Origin: Moniliella sp. 'wahieum'
Taxonomy: Eukaryota
Direction: 5' to 3'
NCBI GenBank assembly: GCA_003971905.1
Contig: RSEE01000090.1
Coordinates: 186,001-250,000 of the forward strand
Length of the DNA stretch: 64,000 nt
Notes under the pieces: model-generated
Told to the model about the DNA's origin: nothing
Seen by the model: only the letters and a program-made list of their open reading frames with translations
Database searches by the model: none
Position numbers and translations under genes: made by a program
Shown here: positions 1 through 61,801 of the stretch, one piece after another
Layout: each line of letters begins with the position of its first letter
How positions within the stretch are numbered: the first letter of the stretch is position 1

Positions 1-750
1 CCCATGCAGCGCAGCCGATGCGCACGGCCGTTTTTATGCTTGCGTGCAATCTGAGCACCTGGGGATCTGTGGGGATCTGGGGAACTAATAGGGATCTGGG
101 GATCTGGGGAACGAGGGATTTGAGGAACTAGGCAACTAGGGAACGGGGGATCTTGGCATCGAGGCCTCGGAGATCTGAGATCCGGGGTCCTGTATCCTGT
201 ACGTGATCCTGTGTTCGATGATCCTGTAGCATGTGATCCTACCATCATGCATCATGCCAGCACAGGAAGCGCGTCCTATGTAAGACGTGGGGAGCATCGA
301 TTCGCTGAGGGTCAGATGGCCGCAACACTGCGGGGGATAGGGGAGTGGTCTTATGATCTCAACGAGCTCAACGTTTGGATTGAACGGTGAACGTCGAACG
401 TTGACTGGTTGACCCTTCCACAGCTCCAACATCAACGCTAAACATATAAACTCCCTTCAAGTGCGCCACATAGCAGGCCACCCAGCCTGCTCCTGCTGGG
501 GGGAGGTTAACGCGTTAAGGACGGAAGGGACCGTTACTTGGATGGCCACACGCACATGTGACATGTCGCAAATGCATGGCTATATCGTATAGGATACGCG
601 ATGGCATGCTTAATTTCAAGCTGAGATCCCCTCCCCCCAGCTCCCCCCCCAGCTCTATACCGGCGCCAACACTCTCGCTTGCGCCACTCTCTCATCCGCC
701 ATCAGCCATCGTGCATCGTCTTTCTTCGCTTGCAACGATCATTCCATCAT

Positions 751-784
751 ATTCACATTCACATTCACATTCACATTCACATTC
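751..784. repeat. (ATTCAC)n hexamer microsatellite
   Basis: Five units read directly. Confidence 0.9.
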
Positions 785-1728
785 GATCTTCAAGCTTCAT
801 TAATCGTTTATCGATTATCATAGCTTCATCATGCATGGGAACGACAAAAGACAATGGAACGCGAAGAGTAGCGCGGGTGGAGAAGTGGAGGTACCGCGTA
901 CGTGTTTCATCATTGTAGGTATAGGACCCCCAGAGGGCCAAGCCTTTGCTCTCCCCTCCCCCCCACCGCGGGCGCAAGGCAACACCAGTGGCGCTGGACT
1001 GCGAGATGGGCCAGGGTCCCATCCCCTTTTTTGCCACTCGCTTTACTTCACGTACGGTGTGGAGACGAGAGGTGTGCAGTCGTATTCATCAATCATCAAT
1101 ACTCAATACTCAATACTCAGTACTCAGGAGCCATCCCATGTATCCCAGGCATCACGAGCCCGGTCAACGTTCAACGGAGGGGAGGGCCTAAGGAAGCCCA
1201 ACCACCCCCGTCCGTGGAAGACCACCGCAGGCCAGGCCAACGCCACAGCCATCATCGATCTCGTAACGTGAGCGCGTGAGCGTCCAAGGAGGACATAATT
1301 GTATTGCTCTAACATACGCGTCAGTGACGGCGGGTGGCGAGGGCGTCAACACGAACAGCTGATGGATGGGCCAAGACGATGGGGTACGAGTTGCGAGTGC
1401 GAGGGGGCGTGGGCGACGGGAGAGGGGAAGCTGGAGGTAATGCGGTTCATAGTCATCGCCTTGGTTGCTCAGGGATAAAGGGAACTGTAGTAACTCTTCA
1501 TCAAATGCGAGGAGCCGAGGGGAACGGTACGGAGAGAGAGACGAGGAGAGGGGGCGATGCAGCGCGGGGGGGAATCAAGGGACTGGAGCTGGCGCTTGTT
1601 TTGTTTGGGCGCGTCCGGTAAAAAAAAGGAGAAGGAAGATCGAAGCCATCGGCTCGAGCTCGATCGACACGACACCACACGGCACAGCGTATCGACACAG
1701 CGTATCGACACAGTGTATCGACAGAGCA

Positions 1729-4995: not shown

Positions 4996-5332
4996 AACAA
5001 GCGCGTGCGCACTGAGTCTGAGTACTGACTGGCGGGTGCGTCGCTGCCCCGCCGACGGCTGGTGTGGTGGCTGCGTGTACGAGTGCGCCCCCTGCCTCGC
5101 CTGCGCCGCCTGCAAGCTGCACCCCACATCGCCCGCAGCTATCACACACTGCAGTGCGCTCGGAGTTCCGACCCACACTGCGCTGGCGCCGCGCCCCTGA
5201 CACCCGAACGCCTCCCTAGCCTCACTGCGAACGCGTGAACGCGCGAACCACCCCCGCGGCTTGCTGTCCCCACGTGACCTACCTGCTGCGGCAGCTGCCC
5301 ACCACGATGTGCTCGCTTGCGTACTATGGCGC

Positions 5333-6932: not shown

Positions 6933-9900
6933 GGGGCTGTGGTGGTGGCGGGAGGAGCGTGTGGGCCGGCGTGTTTGGCAAGGCAAGCACAGAAGCGGAA
7001 ATGGCAAGAGTGCTGGAATCGGCTTGAAGGATCCAGGCTGAAATAATAAGGCTTGGCTTATCTTACCGTCGTATTTGCGTATGGGCGTGGAATACGAGGG
7101 GTGGGTTGTGCTCTGTTGCGCTGTGCCCGAGAGGCCTGAGGCCCAGGCGTGAAGATGAGTAACTGAGTGTGCTCAACTGAGTACTCACTGAGTACAGAGT
7201 GGGCCGTGTACGATTTTTAAATGCAACTGGCGCTTCAGCGCTCCGCGCTACAGGCGGGTGGGTTGCACGGCCGATAATAAACCCGCAGAATCACTTATCA
7301 ATGGTAAGCTGGCCAGCTAGTCACTAGCTCACTAGTTACAAGTTACTAGTTACTAGTCACTGGTCACCGCTAGTCACCGGTCACCAAGCCGCAAAGGGTT
7401 ACGTACGTTACGTTGAACGTTAAACATTAAACGTCAAGCTAAGCGCCAAGCGCCAAGCGCCAAGCTGCTCCTTCTCCCAACTTACACGCTCTGTCTGTCG
7501 CTCGTCCACGTACCAAAGCCGTGCGCCGCGCCCCCATCTATCCCTCCCTCCCTCCCGCCATCATCGACGTCCTGCCTCCTCCTGCGAGCCCTTGCATCCG
7601 CCATGGTGCGTGGACAGCCCCCGCCTTAGATAGGATAGGTCCACGTACACCCCCGCTCCCCCCCACTGTCCCACTGCACGTTCCCTGCAATGAGATCTGA
7701 GAGTCGCGATCAGGCAACCTTCTCTCGGTGGTAATTGGAGGGCAAGTACGCATGTCACGGGGAGGGGAGGGGACTGGGGTCTGACGTGCAATGCGGGCGA
7801 GAAGGTGGCTTTCCATTGGGGCGTCTGTGTGGAGGAGAGAGGGGGTTGGGAATGGGAATCCAACTGATGGGAGCTACTGACGCCTTCGATCCCCTCATCC
7901 CCTCGACGACGCGTGAGAGATCGTCTGGTATCTGCCCGCACCCCAAGGGGAGAGAAGTGGGACGCCGTGGTGCCGTGGTGCTTGGGTGCCAGAGTCAAAG
8001 CGACAGATAGCCTTGATGCATAATAGTTGGACCTCCTGTACAAGTCCTCCGATTCTCCGATTCGACCTCTAGGCGCTTGCGCTGCCCACTGCACCCTATG
8101 GCACAATGTGGAGTTGGGAGTAAAGCACGAGTAAGTTGATGCACGTAAGATTCGATGCCAACCTAAGCCCGGCGCGGCCCCCTGTCCTTCCAAGAGGCGG
8201 GAAAGCTGTGAAAGGAGAGAGCATGGCGCATACGGAGAGAACAGATACCGATGCCGATGCCGATGCAGCTGCAGCTGCAGTGTGTATTAGGGTCCAAGGA
8301 TGCAGTCCTTGCTCGATTCAAAATCCAAGGTAGGATGGTGAGGGATGGATCCCACCTCATCGTTCCCCGCCACCGCATCAGGATCGTGCTTGGCCCCCCA
8401 TCATAGTGTGTTGTTGCGAAGCAAGACAAAAGAAAAAGGGACGCTGGAAGCCCAAACACACACATATACATTTTGAGGGTAGCTATACTACCTATTGCCT
8501 CCCTGATGTTGCTGGCGAGAAAGAGAATCAGGAATGTATGGGCCGGGTACACCGCATGCCCACTGCATTGGAAGATATCGCTGCTGCTGTGGTGTGGGTT
8601 ACTAATTGCAGATGCACCCTCTCATCCGGCCGAGCTGTAGAAGCATAATAGAGACTCAAGAGGGCAGGACAATTGTCGTGTTGTAGCCCTGGTTAAGCTG
8701 ATTTGTACGGTGACAGCAGGCAGGCACACTATGAGGCAGCGGGCGCAGGTCACCAGTCAGGGGAGGACAGTAGTTGGAATGGGGAGGTGTACTGTGGGGA
8801 GGTGTGCTGTGGTGGGGAGGAAGCATGCCCCATGTCCCATGTCCCATGTCCCATGTCATCCGAAGACAAGAGACATCTTCTCACATAAACACTTTCTGGA
8901 TTACTCTAATTGCGTACTACAAAATACAAGCAGGTCTCAAATTCTGCACTGTATTCAATTGACCCCACAACGTTGGGAAGACAAGACATGGTCCAATCCA
9001 TACTTATGTCCCGGCCATCCGAACATGTTACACTCTGGTTGTTGGGGCGTACAACCGGTACCCGGTACCCGTCGCGATCGTTGTCCCTCCTCTGGCGGGT
9101 GTCCTAAAGAAGACTGGGATCTGAGATCTGAGAGCGGGCAAATAGGTATTAGTAGTATTGGCATCCCAACCCGCCGGGAGTGAGCGGCGCTAAGCGCTCC
9201 CTCCAGCCTCAGAGTGCGGTGCCTCAGCCTGAGGCCCAGGGCTGAGCTATGGAGCAAGACATATGCATACCAGTGTGGCAGAGTTGATCGAAAAGATGAT
9301 GACGCGGAGATATGACGATGCACAATAGCGTTCCTTTTAATTATGCCTCTACTGTATTCATTTGGCGGCCCCGGACGGGATTACAGTTACGGTCTGGCCC
9401 TACTATAGTGAGGCCTGAGGCACTATACTGAGCCTCAGTGCTGAGCCTCAGCGTCGTAGACCCAGAAGACTTGCGGCGCTCGCGCCGGCGTTTTTCTTCC
9501 CACTGTCTTCGTCGCGCTCGGTCCCCAGGCAAAACAGTGGATTGGACCTGGGCGCCACCACCCCACCACCCCCCCACCTCCGTGGTGTGTGGGTGAGTGT
9601 GTTGGGGAGGGTGGGGGTGGGGATGAGAAGGAAAAAAAAACCCGTCGTGCAATGTTCCCATCGTCGCAAAAACTCACCCGGACAGTGGCAGGCTCGGATG
9701 TGGGAAGGACCAGGCTCTCTCGTCGCGGTGGGGGGGCGGAGTGGGGAGTGGGGGGTTGGTCAAGGTAACAGATGAGACCTCTGTTTACATTTTGTGTACG
9801 TCCGTATGGGCCGGCGGGCGGAGGCGGGAATTTTAATGATGGGGCGAGCGTGGGCGTGGGTGGGGGGGGTTGATTTGCTGGGGATGGGGATGGGCACGAG

Positions 9901-10966
9901 AGAAATGGTCCCTGAGAAGAAAGGGCGAAGGGAAAGAAAAGAAGGCTGGTGGAGCTATGTTGAGCAGGCCAGCACACCGCAGAGAGGCAGAAGCATGAAC
10001 GACAATTGGTCAGCGTATCTTTTTTTGGGTGTGACATGTGACATGCGGCATGTGAGATCTCAGATAATCGATAGGACATGGTGGGAGGGGCAACGTATAA
10101 GGCATCTGACCAGTGTCCCATGCAACCTGTCAGACATCAGAAGCGTGAAGCTTGAACGAGGATGGGGTATGTATACGATCGATGATTAATGATGATGGGG
10201 AACTGGGAAGTACATGGACCGACTCCGGCTGGCCCGCCGCCACGGCCGCGGACATAGGGCTGGGTTGGCCGGTCAGGCGAGCTGGGCGTTCGGGGCACAA
10301 GTGACGCGAGGAATGAATTGAGGCGTGGCGAGGCCGGAGGCGCTGGGGGCCTACGGCCGGTGCGTCCGCCCAGTCCGCCGTGTTGGTGCGAGGCGAGAGG
10401 GGCGAAAGGAGGCGAGGGTGCCGCGGTGCAGTGCGCGGCAAAATGCATCCCCCACCAGGCCTGGCCAGTCGGCCAGTCTGCACGGACCACCGTGCATTTG
10501 ATTTGGCCTGCCACCGCCTCAGCCACCGCACACCATCGCGCTGGCCGGCCGGGGCGAATTGGATCCCGGGCGGCGTGCTACTTGCTACTTACTTACTACA
10601 CGGATCCACACTACGCGCTCTCTCTCTCTCTGCTGGGTCTCCCATGTGCAATCCAGCACGCATGTCTCGCACTCTTTTTTGCACTCGCCCCCTCCCTCCT
10701 CGCCTCGCCTCGCCTCGCCCCCACGCCCCACTTTAAAACCCCACCATTTGCGCCGACTTGCCTTGGGCCCAGTCTCCTCCCACGCTGCCCCTCTCCTCCC
10801 CAAGTCCTACGCTTAGGCCTACCCGCCTACCCCCCAACCGGCCGCGCTCTACGCTCTCTTTTTCGCCTGCGCCCACCACCGCCACCCCGACCTCTGTCTC
10901 TGTCCTCGACTCCCTCTTCTATACCGCCTGGCCCACCTGCCCCGCCCCGCTCCCGCCGCCCACACC

Positions 10967-12105
10967 ATGTCCTCCGCACCTGCCTCGGGCACCAAGAGTC
11001 TCCCCGCCGGGCCCGCCGTATCCCTTTTGGCTAGGCGGCATCGCAGCGACCTGTGCCGTCGTCTTTACCCACCCGCTCGATGCGATCAAGAACCGGATGC
11101 AAACGCAGACGGGCGTGCGCAAGTCCATGGCCTCGGTCTTGGTCACGACAGCGCGGCAAGATGGCCTGGCTGGGATTTACCAAGGCTTGTCGGCGTCCGT
11201 GTTGAGGCAAATGACTTACTCGCTTGCCCGCTTTGCCGCCTACGATCATTTCAAGAACTCGCTCGCCCGCCAGTCGCCCGACGGATCCATCTCCAATACC
11301 GCCCTCGCCGTCTCGGCCATGGGCGCCGGTGTGATTGGGGGCATTGCAGGCAACCCAGCTGGTACGTATTATACTTTGGTTGGTTCCAATTGGATTCGGT
11401 TGAATTGGGTCGGGTGGCGTTGCGGGCAAGGGCGGTATGGTACTTTGGTACTTTGCTGCTTTGCTACGTTGGTGCACCTGGTGGACTTGTGCACTGTTTT
11501 GTTGTATTCGGAATGGACGAGCTGACTGACGCTGATGCGGTGTGTGTGCGGGGGGGGGCAGACATTATGCTGGTGCGCATGACGTCGGATTTGAACAAAC
11601 CGCTGGACAAGCGGTACAACTACCATGATTCCGTTACGGGGGTGGTGCGCATGGCGCGGGAAGAAGGGGTGGGCTCGCTGTTCCGTGGCTTGGCGCCCAA
11701 CCTAGTTCGAGCAGTCCTGATGAATGCGACGCAGCTCGCCACGTACGATATGTTCAAAGCGAGCCTGGTCAGCACGGGCTACTTTACCGAAGGCACCGTC
11801 CTCCACTTTACCGCCTCCTTTATGGCCGGTACCGTGGCCACGACGGTGACCAGTCCCGCCGACGTGGTCAAGGCCACACTGATGAACGCGCCCTCGGCGG
11901 CTGTGGGCTTGCAAACGCTCAAATCGCATTTCCGCAACGACGGACTCAAGTTCCTCTTCCGTGGCTACGTGCCTTCCTGGATCCGTCTCACGCCAACACC
12001 ATCCTCATCTGGATGTTCTTTGAACAATTCAAGCTCCTCGTCGACTGGACCCGCACCAAGCGCATCCAAGCGGCTACCAAGCCATCCGCCGTCGTCGTAC
12101 CCTAG
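10967..12105 (+). CDS. DIC1: Mitochondrial dicarboxylate carrier
   Basis: PYPFWLGGIAATCAVVFTHPLDAIKNRMQ, LRQMTYSLARF, GNPA|DIMLVRM (intron 11362-11561), RAVLMNATQLATYD and SPADVVKATLMN give three carrier repeats. Frameshifts near 11005 and 11995. Confidence 0.93.
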
Positions 12106-12570
12106 GCGTTTCAACTCTAGTATGTTAAAACGTTAAACCACCTCTGTGTCGTGAAAAAAACCCTAAGGGAGATGTATGTATCTCTTTTCTTTCTTCTCTT
12201 TTCATGTCTTTTCTTCTCTCTCCACACCGTTCTTCCTCCTCTATGCCCCATGATTGGTTCCTTCCTTCCTTCTCCCTGTTGCTTTCATCCCGTATGATTG
12301 CGACCTGCCCGAGGGCGCTACCACGTCCAGGCAGCCGTGTTAATTGTCGGCAGTTTCTGTTTCTGTGTCTGGACGTGGTCTGCGTCCCGTGCTGTGGATA
12401 CTCGCCCTGGCCATTTTCAGCACTCTTGCACCCGTAGCCCGTCGTAATGTCGGTTGAAGTATGCGGTAGGGATGGGCTCGGACCTGGCCAAACGTACACG
12501 GCCCTGTGACATGCGAGGCCGGATGGGAGTGTAGATGTGACATGTGAGGTGGATACGAGTGCAAGTGCAA

Positions 12571-21241: not shown

Positions 21242-22448
21242 GTCCACGCGCCGAAACGCCCCGAGGAACCTTCCCGTCATCCTCGGTGCGGTGCGCGGTG
21301 CACAGCGAGTGTCACCGCTCAACCCTTGTGTTTTTTGCCCAGGGCCGAGGGGTGCGGTGGGGTCGGGTCGGTAAAGAGTTTCAAGGGTTGCATGGTGCAT
21401 GGTGCATGGTGCATGGTGTACCCTTTGCTGTTGCTACAGAGGACCCGCTTCGCTTCTTCGTCCCCCCTTCCACACACCGCCACCTCCCCTCCTACTTCCT
21501 ACCTCCTACCTCCTACCTCCATGTACCTCCCCCTCCATTTCCCCCATTAGTCTGCGTGCTCTTCCACGCCCCATCCTAGGACGCCTCTGTTTGCTCATGC
21601 ATCTCTCCATGCGCCCCGGAACGGGATCAACCCCGTTGCCCGTTGCCCGTTGTCTGTTGCCCGTTGCATGTTATACGTTACAGTTACACGTTACCTGTGC
21701 ACGTTGCCAGCCTCGGTTTTCGCTGGGTCTTTCCTTACCCGCATTGCGCATTGGCTACTCAACTTAACTATGTGCCACTACCCCCCCCCCCCCCTCCACG
21801 CTTTGCTTTGCTTTGACCTCCGATCTCATTCCGTTCTTCCCATGCATGTCGTTGCCCCCATCTCGGTAGGTCGCGAGATAGATGCGAGCGAGGTAGCGTG
21901 CCAACGGGGGCGGAGTAAAGGACGAGTGGGAGTTACGTACGGTATGGAACGGAAGGGAACGTAGTAGGGAACGAAACGGTAAGAAACGTGCAACGCGTGC
22001 CAAAGGGTGCATCTGGTGCGTCGTGCCCCGACGAAAGCACGGGGCGCAAGGCAAGGATGAATCGCAGCGCCAACCTCCGCAGGGGCAGGGCAGGCAAGCC
22101 AACGTGTGAACCAGCGTACTTCTACGAACGATGTAGACCCACCAGTGCAGACTACGTCTTGGGTCGGGAGTCTGCTACGGGGCAGGAGGACTAGGGAAGG
22201 ATCGAATCAGGACTCAGGAATCATTAATCAGGACTCAGGCAGGACTCAGGACTCCGGATTCAGGACTAAGGACCCAGGACTCGGAAGGCATGAATCAGGC
22301 AGGACCAGCCGGAACAGTGTCGTTCTTGGCCCCGAGGCATGCGCGGAGCGCCTCGAACACCGCCGTCGCCACGCCTTTCACCCACCGAACCAGCGCACAC
22401 GCGTCCCCCATACCCCACAAGGCGTGTCCCGCCGTGCCTTGGGCCATG

Positions 22449-26094: not shown

Positions 26095-26665
26095 GCGCGC
26101 AACAACGAAAATCAGGAGAAACCAACGCATCTCCCAATCCAAATGGGCCTGAGGAGGAACGGAAGCGACATTGGCCCTAATATTGGCCGAAGCACGAGCC
26201 ACCCGGCTCAACAACTTCCCTCCTCTGCCGTCTGTGCCAGCCAGTCAGCCAGGCAAGCCGAGCCGAGTCGAGCGGCCGAACAGGCCAGCGAGCAACTAAG
26301 GTGGAGCAGTGTCTGGCAGTGCCTCCTTCACATTGCCGTTGGTGCCACCAGGCGGCGCCGCGGCATCGTCTTTGGGTTATTTATATTGATTACTTGATTG
26401 GTGGCCGGTGATAAATGATTCCGATTGGCGTGGACGGCCGTATCTCCGACGTCAACTCCTGAAGAATCGCCGCGGGCTCCGTCTCCGCGGCACCAGCGCG
26501 GGGAGGTGGGAGCGCGGCGCCACTGCCATCCATCGTTGCTAGCACCATGGCAGGCGTGCGTGCTGGCAAGCGCTGGGTGACCACTCCCCCCCATCTCAGA
26601 ATCCACTAATAAGCATTCAGTACTCAGTTCCGCGCTCCAGCAACTCCACAACGCTCCCACCCATC

Positions 26666-29449: not shown

Positions 29450-29721
29450 GTTGGCTACTAAGTCTCAGTGGAAATGGTTCCTCGCTCGGATGTCACATGT
29501 CAACCACGTTCCTCCGTGTTCACACGCGCTTCCTATGGTACGGGACCGGATGGCGAGAACCGGGGGGTCCTGATATCCTGGCGATCCCGCTGGTTCCTTA
29601 ATCTTGGTGGCGCTTCCAAGTAACCCCCGCAAGATGAACGGTTAGGTTTATAGACGTAGCGTTCCCCCTGTCCCAGCCTTCAAGAGTCAAGCTCTGTCAA
29701 TGAAATGGACGTGATCTAGAG
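29450..29721 (+). mobile_element. Dispersed repeat copy 2 (direct repeat of 25838-26094)
   Basis: Same sequence as copy 1 with two short insertions (tcacatgtcaacc vs tcaacc; ccttcaagagtcaagctc vs ccttaagctc). Confidence 0.75.
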
Positions 29722-30326
29722 ATGAGGCATGACCGATCCCGGTGATCATCGATCATCATGGATAGGAGCCCGTGCGCGGGATCAGGTCGATCAGGCAGGC
29801 TACTTCGTCCCTATGTTGGCACTTGCCCCTGTGCTGTCGAGGGCTATCGTTTCTAGGGTGCTTCAATCTTCGCCCCCACTTCAGTACCTTCAGTTGCGCC
29901 AAAAGCATAAACACACACTCCCGTCAGTCTCTCTCCGAGCTCAGTTTGTCTCTCAAGCCCTGAAGTGCCGCTTGCGGAATCTCCTGCCATTGTCATGATA
30001 GGTCACCATGAGCATGATCTTCTTTCTCATCCCCCTGTGTCGGATCCTTTGCCCCGTTCCCCCGACCCGACTTGCCCAGTGGGCTGTTGCACTGCTAGTA
30101 TGCTTGCCAATTGTTTCCATCCGCTTACGAACCAATTACGGGAGGAGAGCAAGGGGTCATGAATTTTTTGGCATGGGGTCCGAGACAAGGTGGTAGGTGG
30201 TAACAGGGTGATGGGGCAACAGATCGGGACATTTGAGCAGGACGAGCAGGACAAGAAGGTAAGGTACGGACAGAGACAGAGACAGACTGATCATACGAGC
30301 AGCACAGCAAACCAGGTCTCGGTGCC

Positions 30327-31407: not shown

Positions 31408-33320
31408 GTGTAGCTCTGTTGGCCTAGGGAGCCGGACGGGCAGAAGGATGAGGAGAAGGTGATGGATTGGAGCCAGAGGGGTCTGGGTACAGAGGCATCT
31501 ATATAGGAGGCTGGACTAGGCACAGGGACAGTGAGTCACACAGGAGAGAGTGCAGGGCACAGGGACAGTGACACGCAGGGACGTCAGCGTGGAAGCCGAT
31601 GGAACCGAGGCGAACCTGGTCTACCGACTGGGAGCCAGAGGATCACAGTCAACACGGCGGTGTGCAGGAGCAGTGCGAAGCTGCAGAGGAGGTGGGGGAG
31701 GGGTGGTGGGACGGAAGGACGAAGAAAGTGGTGCTGAGCACAGCGTCCCCCCCCACCACCATGGCGCAAGCCATAGCCGCCATCCTACACGCTAAGCTCG
31801 CTTTTCCAAATCAGGAACACAGGCAGGCGGCGACCGGCGATTGGATGAAATTAACCCACGAAGAGCCCAGGCAAGAGAAATACGGGGACAAATTGGCCCG
31901 ACGCACGGCGCCAGTGTTGGCGTGTGGGGCTGAAATGTCTTCAGGCGTGCCGATCAGATTTTAGACCGATGGCGCAATGAGCTTTTTACTTGAAGCTTGA
32001 AGCTTCATTCATCGCGCCCACCGCGGATCCGAGAAAGATTGTGGGCGGGCGATGCATTGGTTTGGGTAAAGCCGATTTAGACGGGGAGGCTGAGCTCAGC
32101 CGCTCAAGTTGAAGTTCAACAGAACCGCTCCTAGAACTGAGCCCATTCTGCCTTGCCACGGGACGCACCCGCGGCGTGCCCACCCCGAAACAGAGGATGG
32201 AGAAGCAGCTGGGAGTGGGGCTGGGTGGGGTTTGACATGGTGACATGGCGAGGCTGCTGCGCCAGACGAGGCGCGGGCTGAGCCTATCATATATCAGCGC
32301 TAGCTCAGCAGAGCGAGCACCTACCTCCGGGCCTTACTCGATACTCACACACTATGCTTGGCGCGCGGCTTATTGCCCCTTGTCTCCGTCCGCTCAGCCT
32401 CAGCGCGTTCAGCCGCTCAGCGATCATCGACCAGCCACGAGGCTCATCGAGCATCTCCGACCTGCCGACGGGCAAGTAGATCACGTGCCCCCGCTCCACT
32501 CTACCGCTCGTCCAACGGCGGAATGGGCGGAAGAGGCGCAGTGACTAGTGACTAGTGACTAGTGACGAGTGACTAGTGAGCGTAGCGCAGCCCACCCACA
32601 CCTCGTAACTCAGTCTGAGTAGTCAGCCGCACTCTACAGTTATACTCTGCCCGTCCAGTCAACCTCCCTATCCCAGTGGCCCACCCTCGCCCACTCAGTA
32701 CTCAGTTGCTCAGCCTCGCTCGGCCTTGCTCAGCCGCCCAGCATTCTCGAAGCTCCCAGGCCGCACCTCAGCTTCCTAACGTCGACTCTCTTGATTCCCT
32801 TTTCCCTCCAGCCTGCTCCGCCGCATCGGGGCCCAAGACACTCGGCAGGGAGCACGCCTTCATCTCTCTATCCCGCACCAAAGCTACGCTGAACCGAGCA
32901 AGATTGGGGGAAACGCTCGGCATTGATCGAGAACAGTGTACAGCGTAGTAAAAGGGGATCGGACACAGAGTAGGTCAAAGAAAAGAGACATCTTTGGTGT
33001 CATACGGCATATGTGCGGTTCGGAGACGAGAAAACAGAATGCGGTGTGGGTCCCTCGTAGTTGCTGTTACGTCGGGTGAAAAAAGAGGACGGGAGGGGGC
33101 GGACGAGGGTAAATTGGTAAAAGGTGTTGTTTGGGAAGGCATGGTGGATACGTGAAAAATGGCAGCTACTCGCTGGATACAATCTAGGTAGGCTTAGCGC
33201 CCCGTTATGCACCAACGTCAACCGTGTAATGCAGGGGAAGGAGGGTGCAGCACCCCTTCCCTCCTCTCGCCCACACCTGGATGGAAATTGCTTGCTGGAG
33301 TTGGTGCGTATTGCGTGTAC

Positions 33321-34374: not shown

Positions 34375-35799
34375 TGATGGTGGTGGTGTGCTGGAGAGTT
34401 GCGTGGGGCAAAAGGGTCAATCAAGGTGGGGGAGGTGGTGCGAGGAAATGGGGATGATGGTGGGGCACAGAAGAGCAAGAGGAAGGCTAAATAGGTGTCG
34501 GCTATCGGTGGGGCGAGCGGCTTAAGCGGGCGAATGCGCCAAAGCCAGACCCTCAATGAGGGGGCTGGTGGTGGGCTGAGCGAGGTTAACCCCGCAGTAG
34601 GTATGTGGGGCCCATGACGTCACAGGACAGCGCATCAGGTCAGTGTTCTGTACAGATCGAAGCTAGCCAGAGGGGAGGGGGGCGGAATTAACGGCGACGG
34701 GACGAGAGGGGAGGTAGCCCAGTAGCATGTAACGTTCAACGCGACGCTCAACGTTCAACGTTCAACATGTCAACGCTTAATCCCGCAGCTCTAGCTCTCC
34801 GGTTTATCGCCGATACCAATGCGTTCCAAAGCTTGGTTATCGACTGGTCGGGGAGGCAAATCATCGCGTGTGCTCGCTGTTGCGCCTACCCCTGCCCCAC
34901 CCTCGCACTGGACGACGGGACTGCACAGACCTTGCCCGCATTCAACGTTCCATGCTACATGCAATACACGCAACATTCAAGTTTTGATGGAGCTTGTACT
35001 TCGATCGAACAAAACAGAGCCAGAACCCACCAAACTTCCAAAGACACTGGCTAGGGTATCCTCTACGGAAATGGGCGGGGTACCCGGTCCCCAGGCGGAC
35101 GTTCTTGGGCCGACCCAGCCACCATCCATCCATCCACCGCTTCCTCGCTGCAACCTCCCCCGGCACGTACTCATCGCTCCCGTATACTTGCGGTCACGTA
35201 TCACCATATCACTAGTCCACGCCCCGAACCCATTCGCTCCCGAGCGTTTCCTTCCCCTTTCTACCTAGACTTGGTTGCCCCGTACCTAGTGGTCTTGTTA
35301 ACTTCGGCATGACACCAATGGCCCTTTCCATGATTTTCGCCCCTACGACACGACAGCACAATCGAAACCGATTCGATTACTTGCGGGAGCGTTCCGCCAA
35401 CAACCGTAACTCATACGCAAGCGACCAGCGGAAGCACAGACGGGGGATGTACATCTTGGACAAAAGGGGAGAGGAAAGCGGATGTGATCCGGCGAGGAGA
35501 GGGCGAGGGGTGGGCCGTGCTGGCATTCTCTGACAAGGAAACAGGAAACAGGAAACAGGAGACAGGAAACGGGAGACAGATTTTACTCTTGTGCATAAAA
35601 GTACATCATGACAGCCAACGACACAACGTAGCAGTCCGACGAGGGACAGCAGGACGAGAGGGACAAGCATACAAGGGCAGCGAGGGACAGGGAGGAACAG
35701 GCCGACGTCATGTAAGGCCCGCGGGACATAGGGCACATGACACGCACAATACAGAACAGGCGAAAGCAAAGGAGGTGCAAACAGGCTGTTCTTAGCGTC

Positions 35800-36820: not shown

Positions 36821-38026
36821 GCGTGCGAAAAAAAAACAAGCCAATAAAAAGTTGGCTAAATGCGCGGGGCGCCCAACGTGATTGACGAGGGGACAAAATG
36901 GGATGAGTGACGCGTCGCGTCCACCCACTCTATCGGCGGTGGTGGGGAGAAGGCAGGAACAAAAGGATGGGAGGTATAGCTGGGGGTAGATGGGCACAGA
37001 CAGACGGCGGTGGATGGCGCGGACGAGGCGATGGGAGTAAGCACGGCAATGTTGCTGGCCTGCTTCCCAACTATTGGCGGTCAAAGCGCTTAGCGCTGCT
37101 TAGCCCCCAGAGTGGCGTGGAGCTTGAAGCTGAGAAGGCGAGGGATGGCAGGACCGGCAATAACGGACACGCGTTAATCGCAGGCTGAGAGTTGATTAGG
37201 CCACTTGTGAGGGCGGGAGGGGAAAGTGATGGGAACGTTGCACGTTGAACGGGCTGAGCGGGCCGAGATGTGAGGTGCGGAGACGTGCAATCGAAAGGGT
37301 CAGCCAGGCCGGATGCAGGATGCAGCTCGCAGCGGGGCGTTGGTATAGGATTTGAGAGTTATGCATTAGGGACTAGACCACCAGCCATGCCGTCCACTCC
37401 AATTTCAACTTTCAACTCCCAGTTTCAGAAGTCGACATTCAGCGCAGCTGCTCAGTTGTCAGACTGACATGTGACATGGACAGCTGGCCCAAGCTCAGGC
37501 GCTCAGATCTGATCGAGGGTCGATGGCTCTTCTGTTTCCATCAGTGACGTCATTTCTCGGGGGTCCTGGTCTGATATGCTTTGCTGGTCCCGGCCAACGC
37601 GGCCAACGTGAGGCTGAGGGCTTGAATCCCCCCACTTGCACCCCCAGGCCGCCTTCCCCCTGCCCATCGCACCCATTACTCCCTCCCCGCTCCAACCCAC
37701 TCAAGACCCCATCCATCCCACCGCGGGCCCATGCCCCATATGCGTCTCCGAGCATCAAGCATTACATCAATTGGGAATGAGAGTCGAACCAGGAGGGCTC
37801 GGAACCGGCAAGAGCGGTAGCAACAGCCAGCCACACAGGGCCACGAAGCACGCGCAGAGGGAAGGTGGGTGCGGAATATGCTTACGGTGACCGGGCATGC
37901 CAAGGTGCGAGAGGGTAGCAGAGAACAGAATGAGGCGGAAGCGAGTGTTACACGACACACAAGGAGGATATAATGTGGATGAAACGAAAACAGGGTCGGG
38001 TAGAGAGGGACGCCGTTAGAACACGC

Positions 38027-44084: not shown

Positions 44085-45090
44085 GCTACTGTACTTACCT
44101 TGTCCTGCCCTTGCCCTTGTCCTCGTCCCGCTCGCGCATGGCGGATCCCATGTCGTTGAGGCCCGAGAGAAGGCACCTACCTTCTCTCTTGTCCATGTGC
44201 CCGAGAGATATGTCTCAAAGGGTGCTAAGCTTATGTGGCCTGCTATGGATCGACCGTCCCCTTCCCCTTCCCCTCTCCCTCCTCTCCTCCCCATGTTTCC
44301 CTCCTCATTTTTTCCCTCTCCATTTTTCCCCTTCCATTTTTCCCTCCCCTTTCCCATTATTGTCTTCTGTTGGGTTTCTTTCGTCTTCCCCCCTATCTCT
44401 ACCTCTACCTCGTTTTGTCTCCCCTTCTTCGCCCCCGCTTGTGGGTGGGCGGGGGGGAGCTCATCTGCACCTCTCCCATAGGAACGCATTCTTACCTATT
44501 CACCCTTTATTCACCCTTTTTTGTCTGTGTGGGGACTCAGTACTCACGACTCACGTGTACAATAGTGAGGCCACCAGTGAGGGCTGCGCCGACAGTGGGT
44601 ACCGAGGGGGAATCTTATCTTCGCTCAGGAGAATGGACCATTCACCCATTCACCTTTCGCCATGCAACAGCACCGCTTCACGCTATGTTTTACTGATCCA
44701 GGGAATGGTAGGGCAGCTTGCCGCCCACGGGGCGGGCAGGACATGGTTCAGTCTCGTCATCCACGGGGGGACGTTGTCTAGTCTGCATTTCTACGTTGTG
44801 TAATCTCTCGGGGCACGCGCTCAGCGGCCTGAACCAGTCTGGTCGGGCCAGCGATCAAGCTTCGATCAAGCCGGATCGCCCCCTCCCCCGCCCCGCCTAC
44901 GTGCAGTCGGCTGTTTGCTGGAAATGTGCAAAACCGGAAATGTGCACACCACATGCTAGGAATGAAGATGATCCATGAGCCTCCGGTGGCTGGAGCAATC
45001 CCAAACGGCCGAGGCCGGACAAACAGGGAGGATAGGAAGGATAGCCGATGACCTCATCGTTCCGCTGGCACGCGCCCTTACTTCGTTGCG

Positions 45091-46643: not shown

Positions 46644-47489
46644 CGCAGCGGCACAGTGGGGTCAGCAGAGGCGAGCGTGGAAGGTATCAGGGACGTGTGC
46701 TGGTGATGGTGGTGGTGGGGGCGGTGGTGGGGGCGGCGGTGGGGACTTGGCCAGCGAGAAGACAACCGAGCCGCGAACGTCGAACAACGCGGCAGGGACT
46801 CGCTTTTGTTGTCGATCATATCCAGACACGGTCTGGCCTATCTGGCCTACATAAGGCCACAGGGGGAGTCACTTGGTCACGAGTCACTGGTGAGTCGCGT
46901 CACGCGTCACCAGGTCACCGGGCGTCGAGTGATAGTCTTGATAATCGATAAAAACCGGGACAACCGGCCTAACCGGTCGATGGTACCAGCAGCAACTAAT
47001 CGAGTACTAATCGACTAACCGTTGCTAGCGATGTGTCGAAGGCCAACGGCTGATCCGTCCTTTCCCCGCCCCACTGTGACGAGATTTGCGATGAACAAGA
47101 TGGCGACCCATCGGCCCACCCGCCTTTGGCATTGTTTCTTCTCCACATGGGCAAATCCTTGTTTGACAATTAAGGGCTAGCGGGTATATATAGTTGTTCA
47201 ATTTTGAACTTGCAGCCTGTCGGTCTCAGTAGTAGTCACTCCCAGCACAAATGTCTGGTGTCTATTGTGTTCGCGAGGAGGGTGCCCAGAAGCCCTGCAA
47301 TCAGGTCTACCAACCTCACTCAATGAATCCTTGGTATTGCGGGCCTAACAGCATTGAGATTTGAGAGCCAATCTCCATCGCTAGTCACTTGTTTTGCGAG
47401 TTATTATTTGTTTGCCCTTGCGAGATCGGTGCTCAGTGCGGCCTTACGATGTAACATGCGGGGCCAACTCCTCTGGCACGTGGCATCCT

Positions 47490-50467: not shown

Positions 50468-52753
50468 GGTGGGGGGGGTGTAGGTGGTGGCGGTGGGCAA
50501 ACACGGAAGAAGGACGTTGGATATAAGAGGGAGGCGGGGGGGGGCCGACGGGGCACAGCACAGACAGAGCGCCCAAGGCAGATCAGGGCAGACGAAGCAG
50601 GAGGCAGACGCTGGGGCAGACAGGGCAGGGTGGCTGGGGGGCAGCTTGAAGCGAATAAAGCTCAAGGATCTGAAGCTTCAAGTCCGAAGTCTGACGTCTC
50701 TGAAGCTCTTGAAGCTTGAAGGTACAAACTGGAAACGATTAGTGATCTAGTGATGCTTGATGCTTGATGCTTGATGCTGAGGCACTCAAGCACAGCCGTC
50801 ACGCGTCACGAAGGAGCTTTGGTCAGCGGCGCTTGAGCCCCCGCCACCAGAAGCAGCACAAGTTTCCTCAAGTAGAAGCTTTCAGCGCCGCAAGTGCAAG
50901 CGACTTGGGGCATGCTTGACGGAGGCGGCACGGAGGCAGTCGGCACGCTCCGGGCAGGGGTGGTGGGCCTCAAATCGCAGGGAGCCAAGGTGAACTTCAG
51001 CTGAAGCTTCAAGAGACGCGGGCCTGCTGGACAGACCACCACCCTATCGTCTGCCCGTCGCAGCAGTCGCAGCCAGGTGGCGACGGGGGTGACCGGTGAC
51101 GCGTGACAATGACGTAGTTGGACAGCTTGTCTCACGGCTGGCGCTGTGCGCCCTGCACGACGCTGAAGGCACGCGGCACGTGCACTCGGCCTCCGCGTCC
51201 TCGCGTCCGTGCGTCCATCGCCTTCCCTAGCCGCCACCCCATCGCTACCCTATCGAGAGCCAGCGCCCGTGCCTGCCGCCAGGCACAACCCCCGCGGTGC
51301 GCAGGACCGGCATAATCGACATACTTCAACCATCTTGCTGCAGCCAGCCGCCCGCGGCTGCACGATCGCGGCCAAACAGCGTGTCCCCGCGGCCAAAATA
51401 CGCAAGCCACACCCCCAGCACTGCCCCCGTGGCCTTCCCCTCCGGAGCTTAACGTTTCTTACCTCCTGCTAGTGTACCTTTTGTCGGGCCAGCCCCATCG
51501 CGCTTTTTCGCGGCATCCGAGTCGAACCCAGCGTCAGCCTCCTTGGGGGGCGATCTGACCGAGCAGGGCCGAGCAGAGGCCGAGCACTGACCTCGCTTGT
51601 TCGCTCGCAAGGCCTTGGACCTTGAATTTGAGCGCATCCGGGCGGTCTCTACCCTTCTAGCACAAGTATTCTGCGGTTGTGTGGGTGTGTGGGGTGGTGG
51701 GTAGCAGATAAGCCTTCGGAGAACAGGTCGCATGTCAATATGTCAATGCCATTCCTCTGACCTCCTGTTATAGGCGGTGCATTTTTGTCCTAATAAATCC
51801 GCGCCCACAGGCCACATGTCCATGCATGCGTATCATGCAGCGACGTGTGTCCTATTCCCCGCCCGCCTATGGAGGCTGCAATGGAAGCGACTGAAGCGTA
51901 TACGACCCCGGGTGTCGGGCAGTGTAGGCCATCGTATGCGGCGGAGCCATGTGGGCGTTGTTGGTGGCAAAAGACGCAGGGGGCAGAGCTATACAGGAGA
52001 TGGCGAGTGAGTTTATAGTCGCTGTTGGCGTATGTACGTATGGCAACCGCACACGCGACATCAATTAACGTTCAACACGTGCAAGTGACGTTCAACCCTT
52101 AATTGATGGCGTATATACGTATACGTGTTGCAAAAGGTGGATGGTGGATGGAGGATGTGGTTCTGTTGAGGAGATAGAGGTACTGCCCTGGAGACTATGA
52201 GAAGAGTACAAAACCGTACATACTACACGTCCACCGCGATGTGAGAGTGCATCACAGGGGGACAGGAGCACTGATATACTCTCACGTAGGATGGCATGGG
52301 GTGCGGCGATCACTCTCATCGCAACAATAACTATAAACCCCGCAACTCTTTGATCTTCGCCAACTGAGCCAACTCCGGTGCACGGTGCATGGCACGTGCG
52401 CCACTTGTTGTTTCTCGCTGATGCGATGGAGATCATGAGGGGGTGGGTAGGTTACAGCATTTCTTGGTCCCCGTTCATCACCTGTCCAAAGCGGTTTCCA
52501 TTCGCTTTTCTCTCCCGGCTTCAAAATGTGGTACAAAACCTCGTGGTACCTGAGTAATAACCCCCTGTTACCTGGTAACCCGGCTGTGTATATCCCGCTG
52601 CTATTGCTGCTGCCCTCGGTCTGGCATTGAGTATGGGTCGCTTCCCGATGCTTGACGGTGTGAATTGTCCGCCTCTCGCTCCCTACCACGGTACCCATAG
52701 TATGCAGGTCTACCCTCCAAAGCTATAATTTCCATAGCCTTTTTTGTGCGTGG

Positions 52754-53196
52754 TGTCACAGTCGGGGCTAAGGCGAGGGAGACCAAAATCGGGACTAGGC
52801 CAAGGGACGTAGCAATCGTCCGTGGGGAAGAAGCAAGAGCAAAGGACATGCTGCGAAGTGGAAGAAGCAGGAAAAGAACGAGATGCTCCTGACGAAGAAA
52901 TTGGAAATGAGAGCGGGAGAGCAGCCAAACTATGGCACGTGGTGTCTTCGTTCTCCTCTTTCACTTCCACTCACACACGCCTATCGTCTTCTGTGTCCGT
53001 TTTACGGTTCTTCGTTTTCGTTAATCACTACCTCTTGAATTCATATCATTGACAGAGCTTAAGGCTGGGACAGGGGGAACGCTACGTCTAAACCGAACCG
53101 TTCATCTTGCGGGGGTTACTTGGAAGCGCCACTAAGGTCAAGGAACCAGGGGGATCGCCAGGATATCAGGACCCTCCGGCTCTCGCCATCCGGTCC
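52754..53196. mobile_element. Candidate LTR (52754-53054, TGTCA...TGACA termini) plus adjacent internal sequence = repeat copy 3, inverted relative to copies 1 and 2
   Basis: 5-bp inverted termini TGTCA/TGACA bound a 301-bp segment of lower GC. 53046-53196 is the reverse complement of the 25.9-26.07 kb repeat with a few substitutions. Confidence 0.6.
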
Positions 53197-53461: not shown

Positions 53462-54968
53462 GTGTGTTTGGCCAAAAGGTCCCTTTGTTCGGTCCCTCCA
53501 CAGGCCTACTACTAGGGGAGTAGTTCCATGATTGTTTCCCCGCTTCTGTGTTTTCCTTGCCCCGCAGCCTATATCCGCAGCTATCCCCTGTTGATGACTG
53601 GCTGCTTGACGTGCCGCTGGAGGTGTTACATGTTACTGATGGGGGTTTGCTTGGACCCCACCACCACTGGTGCGATTGCATTATGCATTACCCTGGAAGA
53701 CCATCAGGCCCAGGCCTCAGGACTGCAGGTGCCACATGGCGATGCATGAGACTGTGCGGGATTGTCCGCGTAGCTATGCTGGCAATGGGGTCCCCCCACA
53801 TTCGCACAAAACGCACATCTCGAGGGGCCGGTACGGTGTGGGAACTAAGCAAGTGCTATTGTTGAAGAAGAGCTCCGAAAGCAGCAAGTGGGACTAGCGG
53901 TCGATATTTGATGGAGACCGAGATGAAATTACGCTGGCAGTGGCGAGCCCAAGTGATCTTGATGGAGCGGGAGACCCGTAAAAAAAACATTACGTGCGGA
54001 TGCATCACATGCATCACGTAGATGGAGGTGACTGCGGTGACTGATGGTCTTGGCGCTTCTGGTATGCTACTAGGCGGAGTCGGGTACTGACGATGGGTCG
54101 CTGGTCACAGTCACGTGTCACAGGCCACAGGTCAAGACAACGCCCAACAAGCGGCGCGCTTCTTGTGGATACGGGCCGACAACCGGATAGGTACCGCGCT
54201 GCTGGGACATGGTACAGAGCGGGCACTGGCACGAGCACACCGCGGTGAGAAACACTTTCCCCGTGCGGGGCGGCGCAGCACTGGCGTCGTGCCCGGGCTT
54301 GGCTGTCGGAGGGCCGCGCACGCGGGTCGCCTGGGCGGGGGCGCTGTTATTAATCGCTGGAATCAACCGCTCGAGTGCCGACTATGGATGATTGGGTCGA
54401 TGATTGCGGCAGGCTGCGCTGGTGCGGCCGGGTGAGCGGCGGCGGCTGGGCACTCTGTTGGCAGTGTGCGCTACTGGCGGCGGCCGGCTGCTCCCAGCTC
54501 AATGGGTGATCGGCCTGGTGCGCAGCCCAGGCTCAGTCTCGCTCAGCCTCGCTCGGCAAACACGCTCACCGGTCACCGTGGGTGTGATATATGACGTACG
54601 GCGCGAACGCGTGACGCGGGATCGGGGGGGAGAGGAGCGATCGCGCTGATTGCGTTTTTTGCGTGCTGACGTCGGCACGTTCAGCGCACCCATCGGCATC
54701 CCCGCCGCCACCATCTTCCCGCCGTGCTCTCCCCCCACGCCCTCCTGCTTTGGGTGATCGCATTGGTGGAGATGAACCCACGTCTGTCCGCATTCCCTCT
54801 GTCTTCGCCCCGCCGACGCCTTCGCTTCCTGCCCCCTCGTCTTGTCTCTTGCCCGTCCGCTGCTCCCAACCGCGGTGAATGAGGCTGTCTGCGTTTGCAC
54901 ACCGCCTTGCTGGGCTCCTCGCCTTCCTCGCCTGCGCAGCAGCCATCGCCTCCGCATTTGCCGCCCCG

Positions 54969-58581: not shown

Positions 58582-58631
58582 CTTGCTTCTGCTTGCTTCT
58601 GCTTGCTTCTGCCTGCTTTTGCTTGCTTCTG
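58582..58631. repeat. (CTTGCTTCTG)n 10-bp minisatellite
   Basis: Five units, one degenerate. Confidence 0.85.
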
Positions 58632-59230
58632 CTCCTGCACTCGGAGTCTTTGTCGCTTCGAAAGCCCCCCCTTTCATCTATGGCCTTCACATTTTCCTTT
58701 CTAGTTGTTTCGCCTTTTTCATCCATCGTCCCCAAGCTCAATTCTATGGTGATCCATGCATGTTGAACTTGCTTCTTGGTGTTTGTATGTTGTGCTGCTT
58801 GCCGGCTTGCTTGCACGCATACCCCCTCACCGTTTCCTTAATCTTACACTCTCATTAGCGCGGCTGGACGCGCCAAGGTGCTCAGCGCTCATTCTATAGG
58901 CGAAAACCAAAGGCCGAAGGGGGCCCAACCCTAGCTGCCACAATGCAGCGTGTACATCTGCGCTAGAAAGGGAATACATGGACTTGTGCCTGCCTCCTTT
59001 TCAATAGTACCCGCCGCGACAGTGGGTTGCCAAGTAAGCCTGATCAAGACCCGTCGGTATTGGTATTGGCATTGTCACTGACAACGGTGGGGAGGCGGGT
59101 ATCTCTCCACCCTGATGAAGGATGGACCTCCACTGCTGACGTTCGCGACAGGGTGGGTCCCTTTGGGCTGGGGTTGCTGGTCTCTACACCCCCAAGAGCT
59201 TATCATTCCCATTTGAACTTTGTGGTATAA

Positions 59231-59336: not shown

Positions 59337-59341
59337 GATCG

Positions 59342-59359
59342 TTTTTCTTTTTTCCTTTT
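59342..59359 (+). terminator. RNA polymerase III oligo-T terminator of tRNA-Ser
   Basis: TTTTTCTTTTTTCCTTTT begins 6 nt after the tRNA 3' end. Confidence 0.8.
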
Positions 59360-61801
59360 CTCGTCGAATGGGATCATCGATCATCGATCCCAACAGAAGG
59401 ATTGGTTCCGCTCACTTCCACTTGCGCTTTGTCTATCCACATCCAAGCAGGGAACGGTGCTGGGGGGGGGGGGGGGGGGGCAGCGGTGGGGGGGAGAGGT
59501 AGGACGCACAACCAAAAGCGGTGGGGCTTGGGTCCTCGGTCGCCGGTTACCTCGCCAGTCATATGCTTCCTTCACTCACTAGTACTCTGCTGCGCTGCGA
59601 TTAAAATCGCTGGAGCTATTATATAGTGTTCCGTACTGGCCATCAGACCCTCAGACAGGTCGTCGCCCATACAGCACCAACAATGCGGCAAAAGAATCCA
59701 AGTGCTACAACTGTGATTAGTGATTGAACTAGCCATGGGGCAGTGACGGCAACAAAGTGTTGGTAGTACTACTACCTTCTCCGCTTCGCCGACCCAGAGG
59801 CTTAGGGCGCTCAGGGCGCAAGTCCGGTTTACCCAAATACCTCAGCGCCGTTCAGGCGCTATAATGGAGCGCAAAGAACGTCAGCTATTAGCGCGTAGCA
59901 CAAGTATGCCAACTCCAAGCAGGGGGCAGGAACGACTTTTTCGGAGAGTATCGAACATCCGGGACGCGAGGGGTATCGGCAAGTATCAGAAGAGACACGT
60001 TTCAAAGGCGCATGTGCAAGTATAACCTCCACACGTCAAGTGGTTATCTGCCCATACATGCCAAAGAACCACTGCCCTATAGACTAGTGTGCATGGTGCT
60101 GGTGGATGCTACAACAGCGAGGCAAAAATATGAAGAAGGGCCAAAAGCACAGTCCTTGTTGAGCACTAACGATTGAGGGTATACAAGGTGGCGGTAACAT
60201 CCTCTAGAAATGCAGCCTCGCGCCACCTGGCATGGGTCCTGGGTGGAGCGAACTTGGGCCCGAGCCACAATTAGGGTGCTTTCCTATAGAGGACAAGCTA
60301 CAACGGTTGATCAAGCTTGGACACTAATGGCAGATCGAAACGGAGCTAGAGATCACGAGAGATAAAGAGGCCTCTTAGTCGGGGCGTCGACTAGCACGGC
60401 ACCGTTGCGTATGCGCCGGAACGAGCAAGACCAACATGCCTGTAATCCGTGGTCCTGAAGAAGGGTTGGCCAGAGGGCTGGTGCTGGCAGACAAAGACAA
60501 AGGTAGGACAGGTCCTGTCTGACAGAACAATTCAAGAACTCTTGTTGAATCGCCGCGAGAGCCGCACAGAGCACAGACTGAGTACTGAAAAGATCGACAG
60601 CAACTGTATGCCCGCTCGAAGGGATGTAATACCGGAAGACCAAGAGGTGGTCGCTGGAAGGCAGGTCGGTGGGAATGCTGGTGATTTGTACAGGATAACG
60701 CGGGAGTTGCCTGGCGGTCAAGGATAGATTTCCGAGTCTTCCTGTTACAAAGACAAAAGTCGAAGAAAGGAAGGAAGAAGAAGACCAAGAAGACCAAGAA
60801 GACCAAGAAGACAAGAAGACAAGAAGACGAAATGGCCTGTTCGTGGGAAATTTTAGAACATGGATCAAGTTGAACGTTGAACTCGTTGAGCGTTACGTTG
60901 ATCGGTCATACAGGCAGCACGATCTACAAGAAATAGACAACACAAAACGATGAAGCAAGGGGAAGGGAATCGAGATCACTACTCCGTGGCCCCCACAGAA
61001 AGGACAGACCAAGTAGGGAAACGTCCCCACACTCAGTGTCAGGAGACGGAGATGGGGGAAAGGGTGCAGATGGATTGCATACATCTATGGACGCACAGGA
61101 GGTATATGTACCTCCTCAGGAAGGGGGCACAGTCGAGAGGTGGACACAGGATCTCCCAACTGATAAGAATCACGCCATAGTGCCCATACGGGCCTAGTGG
61201 GCCAAGGGCCCCCTAGCACGGCGTGAGTCTGACACTCAGCCGGGAACGGGAACGCTGGCCACAATGCGAAACGCCCCAAAGCAAGGGCAACAGGCTACCC
61301 ACAGGCAAGGAAGACAAAGGGAGAGGGTGCGCTCGGCCGGGCTCGGCCACCCCCCCCCCCCCGGCCATTGCCCGTCACATGGTCACCTCACCGCTAGATA
61401 TTCTTCAAGCATAAACTGGGAGTTCGCGCTGTGGACCCACTGGGTGCCCTGAGCCTCAGCGCAACACACAGACGTCGCCTATGGGACCACAGGGAACACA
61501 ACTAGCTGCTGGGCACCCCAACTGTTCTACGCACCCCAAACACCCACTATCCAAAACCCACAATCGTAACCGCACAAGGAAGGAAGGCGGTGCTCTCTGG
61601 GCGAACATAGCATTGCAAGTTTCACGTGCACGCTTGCGTGTTGGGGCTGCATGGGGGCAGTGTGGAGTGGGTCTCGTGCCTCTGCCGACGGCCACATCGC
61701 TCAGAAACCCGTTTGGAAACGAGTCTGGCTCAGCAAAGCCGCTTAGCAACCGCGCTGCCTATCTCGCGACCCGTGCTCAGCCCACCGCCATCGCCATCGC
61801 C

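Follow-up and report, generated by a model that had tools for sequence, protein, structure and literature searches.

Computational analysis of a 64,000-nucleotide stretch of Moniliella sp. 'wahieum' DNA (contig RSEE01000090.1, positions 186,001 to 250,000; the whole stretch is called the window below) has identified its recurrent short intergenic units, in which two copies of a T-N-A trimer enclose a palindromic tetranucleotide spacer, as mutation scars and not selected binding sites. A scar lengthens a target of the form xy-TNA-ab by seven bases, of which five are copies and two are inverted flank bases; it is the adjoining flank, not any consensus, that predicts the spacer. These scars probably work like the excision footprints of RAG/Transib-type systems, left by a transposon that would duplicate a 7-bp, TNA-centred target. 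The assembly comprises 223 contigs and 69.5 Mb; on contig C64 the window recurs at about 93% identity, and this copy is treated here as the second haplotype of the region.

Repeat rule and scar geometry

The window contains 81 TCA-N4-TCA or TGA-N4-TGA units, 39 of them with a palindromic spacer, compared with 26.0 and 1.33 expected from 30 dinucleotide shuffles in 500-bp blocks. This bears out the first-pass annotation of the window, which had counted more than 20 palindromic-spacer units by eye where about one was expected and whose listed coordinates and spacers are all present in the sequence. When 32 trimer classes are ranked by palindromic excess at a spacer of four, TCA/TGA, the trimer named at first pass, comes first, and TAA/TTA, which had been missed, comes second, with six of 11 TTA/TAA units palindromic against 0.27 expected. 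Since TTA and TAA obey the same rule, the trimer is T-N-A and not just T-S-A. No palindromic excess was seen in the window at spacers of two (5/17) or six (1/30), and across three sequence sets GNC, ANT and CNG centres and spacers of two, six and eight stood at or near chance. Taken as a whole, units in inverted arrangement show no enrichment (TCA-N4-TGA, 8 against 12.1; TGA-N4-TCA, 12 against 11.8); the latter has a palindromic spacer in five of its 12 units in the window. Fourteen of the 16 palindromic tetranucleotides occur as spacers there, the earlier list of 13 being correct as far as it went and lacking TATA (32287 and 54585). Sites with one mismatch are minor targets, with 34 palindromic against 154 other fillers for CNA and 24 against 157 for GNA.

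The rule holds well beyond the window. A 17-base array gave 641 matches across the genome, against two for its letters in reverse order, and 517 units were counted in 547,158 non-redundant bases of seven contigs, about 0.9 per kb. The units are clustered (45 of 186 gaps are 100 bp or shorter, against 11.7 expected) and avoid coding stretches, in line with the first-pass statement that they lie outside readable coding sequence: none of 45 TNA-palindrome-TNA units falls within the 8,811 bases of Pfam-matched stretches, three of which were widened to take in a second match (chance 0.0013). Two young 5-kb insertions of copia-type long terminal repeat (LTR) elements, at C90:8455-13500 and 111238-116297, carry 5-bp duplications, are absent from the second haplotype and contain zero scars. 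At least 128 metagenome loci carrying one of the arrays held, in 433,746 bases, 33 other palindromic against 1,013 non-palindromic units; no other organism with the rule was found among them, which says little about unsampled fungi.

The geometry of the units is equally strict. Around isolated palindromic doublets, the repeat runs on for exactly two bases at one side and for zero at the opposite side in 50 and 47 of 278 cases for the two mirror forms, compared with 4 and 5 of 118 controls; in the second haplotype the same two modes account for 35 and 34 of 221. A tandem duplication would need two extensions that sum to four. Extensions of two and zero therefore identify the primary products of xy-TNA-ab as xy-TNA-abb'a'-TNA-ab and its mirror xy-TNA-y'x'xy-TNA-ab, not as tandem copies. 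Among 16 neighbouring geometries compared, only that with two flank bases and two inverted ones stands out (288 of 431), and an odd junction shifted by one base is at chance level (31 of 442).

Duplication length was examined in 37,020 non-palindromic TNA heptamers and 199,838 control heptamers, with classes that overlap in part. The main class, with two bases added and two lost, numbers 308 against 27 controls. If the target duplication is 7 bp long, some less common joints are expected to have an intact heptamer on each side, and such joints were found: (i) the full heptamer doubled around two inverted bases (34 against 11 controls); (ii) the full heptamer doubled around one inverted base (45 against 37); and, among polymorphic indels of these full-heptamer kinds, (iii) three of +8 and three of +9. 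Two further classes comprise joints with two bases added and one lost (47 against 24) and joints with the complementary middle base (22 against 12 in the five-fold larger control set), the latter being the difference between the haplotypes at window position 1164. The target duplication is 7 bp, with a cut-off at that length; maximal duplications with two inverted bases and lengths of 5, 6, 7, 8 and 9 number 127, 13, 20, 1 and 1, and in the second haplotype 81, 7, 10, 2 and 1. Plain heptamer duplications without an inverted base are not clearly enriched (112 against 454 controls), and support for perfect in-register ones is weak (11 of 326 and 1 of 196 in the two sets).

Two shorter duplications were considered and rejected. 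The 3-bp TNA duplication, the type known from Harbinger, Tc4/Tc5 and IS1031, and a 5-bp integrase-type duplication are both excluded by the right-flank bases on the left copy together with the doubled full heptamers.

Comparison of the two haplotypes

The haplotypes were aligned over 268,474 columns; for conservation, flanks were taken 30-50 bases away and shared sites were counted from both sides. Cores differ by substitution at 5.4% against 4.4% for the flanks, and indels affect 38% of cores compared with 23% of flanks. That cores diverge at least as fast as their flanks speaks against selected binding sites. The first-pass annotation had offered such sites as one of two explanations, with a general regulatory factor reading TGA half-sites 7 bp apart and selection keeping them, and the units are indeed non-coding, clustered and in many cases upstream of genes. 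This proposal is very unlikely to be right, since, besides the divergence, isolated cores are common to both haplotypes in 140 of 277 cases, much like non-palindromic TNA pairs (206 of 423) and below other palindromic controls (101 of 162), the flank templates the spacer, TTA and TAA follow the same rule, and some units are located between convergent genes or in a stretch that resembles an intron. A secondary, co-opted regulatory use of some arrays may exist.

An origin in long-read sequencing or assembly was weighed as well. The haplotypes differ by 2,545 one-base indels, reading frames are frameshifted, and genes are broken across several frames at window positions 2100-4430, 23200-25500, 40580-43650 and elsewhere, which suggests that the assembly retains residual long-read errors, besides introns. 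The units themselves are almost certainly no such artefact, because 25 of 44 alignable window cores are also present in the second haplotype, half of all cores are common to two independently assembled haplotypes, and cores decay by point change and avoid coding stretches.

The indels carry the signature of the scars. Lengths of 5, 6, 7 and 8 bases occur 95, 106, 116 and 57 times, with the peak at seven. The 116 seven-base indels divide into 40 that obey the rule at TNA, eight that obey it at another trimer and 68 that do not. Eighteen of the 40 are non-tandem (17 with clean flanks) and the other 22 are also plain tandem duplications; the same test for two inverted bases gives 3/83, 1/85, 3/54 and 2/48 at lengths of 5, 6, 8 and 9. 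Plain slippage, already judged insufficient at first pass, is ruled out by the 18 non-tandem cases and the two extension modes. On the plus strand, 12 of the 18 draw on the right flank and six on the left. They stand beside 9,303 substitutions, about one per 500, which would be a low rate for a mobile element. Longer arrays gain or lose whole units between the haplotypes.

Proposed excision model and competing explanations

According to the model proposed here, a cut-and-paste DNA transposon would insert at xy-TNA-ab and double these seven bases, and its excision would seal both flanks as flush hairpins by RAG/Transib chemistry. A host nuclease would open each hairpin mostly two nucleotides 3' of the tip, leaving two 4-nucleotide 3' overhangs that read a b b' a' on one strand and y' x' x y on the other. 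Edge-to-edge end joining with either strand fixed would then yield the right- or left-hand product, each with seven added bases, a palindromic spacer and the same middle base. Any equal opening would give +7, deeper openings the complementary middle base, and unequal openings +8 and +9; the products point to a flush hairpin opened mainly at +2. Every scar would be a fresh target, and repeated hits, helped by slippage, would build arrays, so that a chain should open with the spacer of the left flank and close with that of the right flank. Both spacers fit their flanks in this way in 11 of 18 two-spacer chains and each single end fits in 14 of 18, all 18 having only two spacer types. Slippage no doubt adds units to the longer arrays; the likeness to slippage-born micro- and minisatellites lies in this unit-length gain and loss, and the difference in a birth that is non-tandem, with units predicted by the flank.

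The RAG hairpin ends are flush, and the target duplication of Transib and ProtoRAG is 5 bp. Artemis is described as opening RAG hairpins 1-4 nucleotides 3' of the tip, mainly at +2, to give 4-nucleotide overhangs (PMC2175297), and the accounts of RAG and Transib excision place the hairpins on the flanking DNA (PMC5499845, PMC13041557). The present scars would share with RAG1/2 coding joints and Transib excision these flank hairpins and the even-centred palindromic P additions described in the same accounts (PMC2175297, PMC5499845, PMC13041557). Unlike them, the joint here connects the two copies of a 7-bp duplication centred on TNA and is a highly stereotyped +7, germ-line and genome-wide.

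Other systems resemble the scars in part. Footprints of the hAT element Ac/Ds in plants and yeasts are described as combining a target duplication with short palindromic additions and as having predominant types, and short P stretches are reported at hAT footprints of Candida albicans (PMC5873905). The hAT palindromes of that account are, however, odd-centred on the complement of the element-adjacent base and accompany an 8-bp duplication, while those here are even-centred with 7 bp; the main-class footprint is not hAT in the strict sense. The Mutator-like Muta1 shares a flank hairpin (a product of 43+43 nucleotides, consistent with a flush end) and a long duplication (PMC5499845), but over 90% of its excisions in yeast are given as precise and not as +7 scars. 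Basidiomycete elements with 7-bp duplications are on record, namely hAT7 of rusts and Kyakuja of Laccaria, with no TNA preference or footprint rule described in the accessible text of the source (PMC12730594). The CMCT clade (EnSpm/CACTA, Plavaka, ESTA, CNEST, CNIRT6) is related to Transib/RAG1, and members are present and recently mobile here. A literature search, to which most subscription journals lay outside, returned no description of such a genome-wide pattern.

The other explanation of the first-pass annotation was a fold-back or template-switch mutational process, and its mutational nature, with a fold-back step, is retained. In its full form, the nascent strand would fold back or switch template at TNA during replication, reverse-copy two or three bases and realign, with slippage extending the product. 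Such an error would yield inverted bases beside a duplication, the 22 rule-fitting indels that are also plain tandem duplications agree with it, and short tandem repeats of other kinds abound in the genome. It leaves unexplained the exclusive TNA centre, GNC, ANT and CNG giving nothing, the lack of enrichment at spacers of two, six and eight, and also the doubled whole heptamers and the cut-off at seven, which already strain it. The fixed geometry, the full 7-bp duplications with one or two inverted bases and this cut-off favour target duplication plus hairpin opening over template switching, and replication error is a distinctly doubtful source of the scars.

A different possibility is that no transposon passes through, and that nnTNAnn is cut with a 7-nucleotide stagger, and the filled ends are hairpinned, by a DDE-type nuclease that belongs to the host or has been domesticated. 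It predicts the same products as excision and would accord with the very high density and clustering of the scars and with the want of any element with a 7-bp duplication in about 0.9 Mb scanned. To our knowledge, no enzyme both staggers its target and flush-hairpins the filled ends without an inserted element, and this explanation is considered rather unlikely. A special form of it, in which a domesticated RAG/Transib-like enzyme keeps cutting and hairpinning nnTNAnn in open chromatin and, with no ordinary transposon, has left V(D)J-like coding joints by the tens of thousands in germ-line non-coding DNA, is quite unlikely; if true, such an enzyme would act as a sequence-programmed generator of new repeats and of variation in promoters.

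The search for a causal element disclosed several transposons. An old Tnp2-type transposase remnant (C17:556930-557982 and C62:282023-283090) is common to both haplotypes and has no readable ends. At C34:511854-516747 lies a 4.9-kb EnSpm-like element with CACGC ends, a 3-bp duplication and a decayed Tnp2-type transposase, present as a single assembly match. At C64:94953-100341, the place of window position 52776, the second haplotype alone carries a 5,389-bp CACTA-like element with 37-bp inverted ends beginning CATAG and a 2-bp duplication; its broken frames have CxxC and HxxxH motifs like those of CACTA/ESTA-type transposases and no Pfam match. CACTA-like elements are recently mobile in this genome, which speaks for the excision model. 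A PF02992 search matched two of four candidates, both Tnp2-type remnants. With these two proteins, the assembly search returned only the allelic copy or the query itself; longer homologues were found among none of 1,519 candidates, and distant relatives among representative sequences numbered 437. A terminus pattern gave 15 matches, none pairing as element ends. The hAT and KDZ domain searches, a weak test, found nothing for the two 7-bp families named above.

Several results weigh against the excision model. (i) A scan of about 0.9 of 69.5 Mb for elements that combine inverted ends with a 7-bp duplication centred on TNA found none, only lattice self-matches, and about 0.9 scars per kb against less than one candidate element per 0.9 Mb is very lopsided. 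(ii) Searches with PF05699, PF13359, PF18758 and PF18759 (hAT, Harbinger, KDZ, Plavaka) gave zero matches and were uninformative, the controls being mostly silent too. (iii) The CACTA-like elements with readable ends carry 2- and 3-bp duplications, the third having no ends, and fungal CMCT elements are reported to duplicate 2-5 bp (PMC12730594, PMC12810828). (iv) Excision footprints as described elsewhere are more varied than these scars, one account giving 28 types among 128 Ds excisions (PMC5873905). (v) A hAT-type odd junction with three inverted bases is mildly over-represented (13 of 215 against about 3 expected). (vi) Fifteen of the 18 polymorphic scars share one orientation to the middle base and standing scars do not, which is unexplained. 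(vii) Single events would be gains, and the single indels lack outgroup polarisation, the remaining contigs of the assembly matching at only 73-78%, in coding DNA. (viii) The AATT spacer is nearly missing (1 of 517 units), and a right flank AA occurs in one of 308 products against 14.7 expected. A right flank TC is over-represented (47 of 308); the lack of AATT and the excess of TC are a sequence bias of targeting or of hairpin opening, and unexplained.

If the excision model is true, a sizeable share of intergenic short repeats would be a fossil record of visits by a transposon that is itself rare, with roughly 30,000 units per haplotype when extrapolated from the density above. Besides slippage and retroelement tails, there would be another route by which tandem repeats are born, and a DDE lineage not yet described, with a 7-bp target centred on TNA, would be indicated. 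Thousands of natural outcomes of hairpin opening and end joining would also become available for study in a fungus, where the hairpin-opening enzyme is described as not settled (PMC5873905). Motif finders would mistake the arrays for regulatory sites.

Units of the window and neighbouring elements

The units and related sites of the window are listed below by window position, with the strand where one is assigned.

245..254: TCA-TGCA-TCA unit; core retained in the second haplotype
790..817: two primary scars, TCA-AGCT-TCA (790, left-flank spacer) and TTA-TCGA-TTA (808, right-flank spacer)
1086..1126: TCA lattice, chiefly with non-palindromic ATAC spacers (slippage-like), and TCA-GTAC-TCA (1117) at its end
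1164..1173: TCA-ACGT-TCA; the second haplotype has the complementary middle base in the second trimer (perfect 10-bp palindrome)
5019..5028: TGA-GTAC-TGA unit
7343..7383: clustered TTA/TCA units whose spacers are CTAG and CCGG
7691..7700: primary scar TGA-GATC-TGA, five bases copied and two inverted, right flank
9122..9131: TGA-GATC-TGA unit
9409..9418: polymorphic scar TGA-GGCC-TGA, non-tandem; 7 bases absent from the second haplotype
10032..10192: three-unit cluster (CATG, AGCT, TTAA) upstream of the mitochondrial carrier gene
11521..11527, plus strand: empty target heptamer in a probable intron; +7 scar in the second haplotype
12538..12547: TGA-CATG-TGA unit between two convergent genes
22207..22237: TCA lattice containing TCA-TTAA-TCA (22221)
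26617..26626: primary scar TCA-GTAC-TCA
29493..29502: TCA-CATG-TCA within a multi-copy repeat
29746..29755: polymorphic TCA-TCGA-TCA; 7 bases absent from the second haplotype; a tandem-duplication reading also fits
29780..29795, minus strand: minor +9 product, full TNA-centred heptamer doubled around two inverted bases
29879..29894, plus strand: minor +9 product of the same kind, full TNA-centred heptamer doubled around two inverted bases; also in the second haplotype
30289..30295, plus strand: empty target heptamer; +7 scar in the second haplotype
31991..32004: TGA-AGCT-TGA array
32287..32296: primary scar TCA-TATA-TCA
32542..32579: longest array, six in-phase TGA with four CTAG and one CGAG spacer; second haplotype 25 bases shorter
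32695..32704: TCA-GTAC-TCA unit
34748..34764: TCA-ACGT array; second haplotype one unit shorter
37359..37474: TTA-TGCA-TTA (37359) and TGA-CATG-TGA (37465)
44537..44553: TCA-GTAC-TCA and an adjoining non-palindromic unit
46877..46951: cluster with TCA-CGCG-TCA (46900) and TAA-TCGA-TAA (46942)
50710..50808: cluster of TGA-AGCT-TGA, a TGA-TGCT lattice and TCA-CGCG-TCA
51090..51106: two-spacer chain, CCGG then CGCG; left spacer equals left flank, right flank off by one base
53626..53690: two TTA units, CATG and TGCA
54566..54594: TCA-CCGG-TCA and TGA-TATA-TGA (54585), upstream of the Na+/H+ exchanger gene
58882..58891: polymorphic scar TCA-GCGC-TCA, left-flank spacer, non-tandem; 7 bases absent from the second haplotype
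59374..59383: TCA-TCGA-TCA unit
60579..60588: primary scar TGA-GTAC-TGA
60871..60880: TGA-ACGT-TGA unit

A Pfam match was obtained for 22 of the 47 reading frames of the window, and its housekeeping genes include those for an OPT transporter, a mitochondrial carrier, peptidase M28, IDO, NIPSNAP, Erv1 and Ca2+ and Na+/H+ exchangers, among others. The mago nashi protein is 83-84% identical to its counterparts in Tilletiaria, Testicularia and Ustilago, which makes the fungus most likely one of the Ustilaginomycotina. Contig C3 has collinear matches to C36 and C21 at only 73-78%, and the GDPD gene at window positions 45160-45950, compared with six other contigs, forms three extra pairs at 68-74%; these matches suggest that, in addition to the two haplotypes, there are duplications of greater age or another subgenome.

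Other repeats lie in the same region. Window positions 29264-29724 hold a 460-bp repeat, dispersed in at least 40 copies that are 89-93% identical, and an 80-bp part of it occurs near 26000 and at 53036-53120; in the second haplotype, a copy with its flanking DNA stands at another place, as rolling-circle capture would give. A 256-bp haplotype-specific insertion at 25582-25837 has a GC hairpin beside its end, resembles the end of a non-autonomous Helitron, and occurs also at two further breakpoints between C90 and C64. At 31409-31655 and 61031-61232 lie two TG...CA elements, 200-250 bp long and haplotype-specific, which are probably solo LTRs; the second has a 5-bp duplication.

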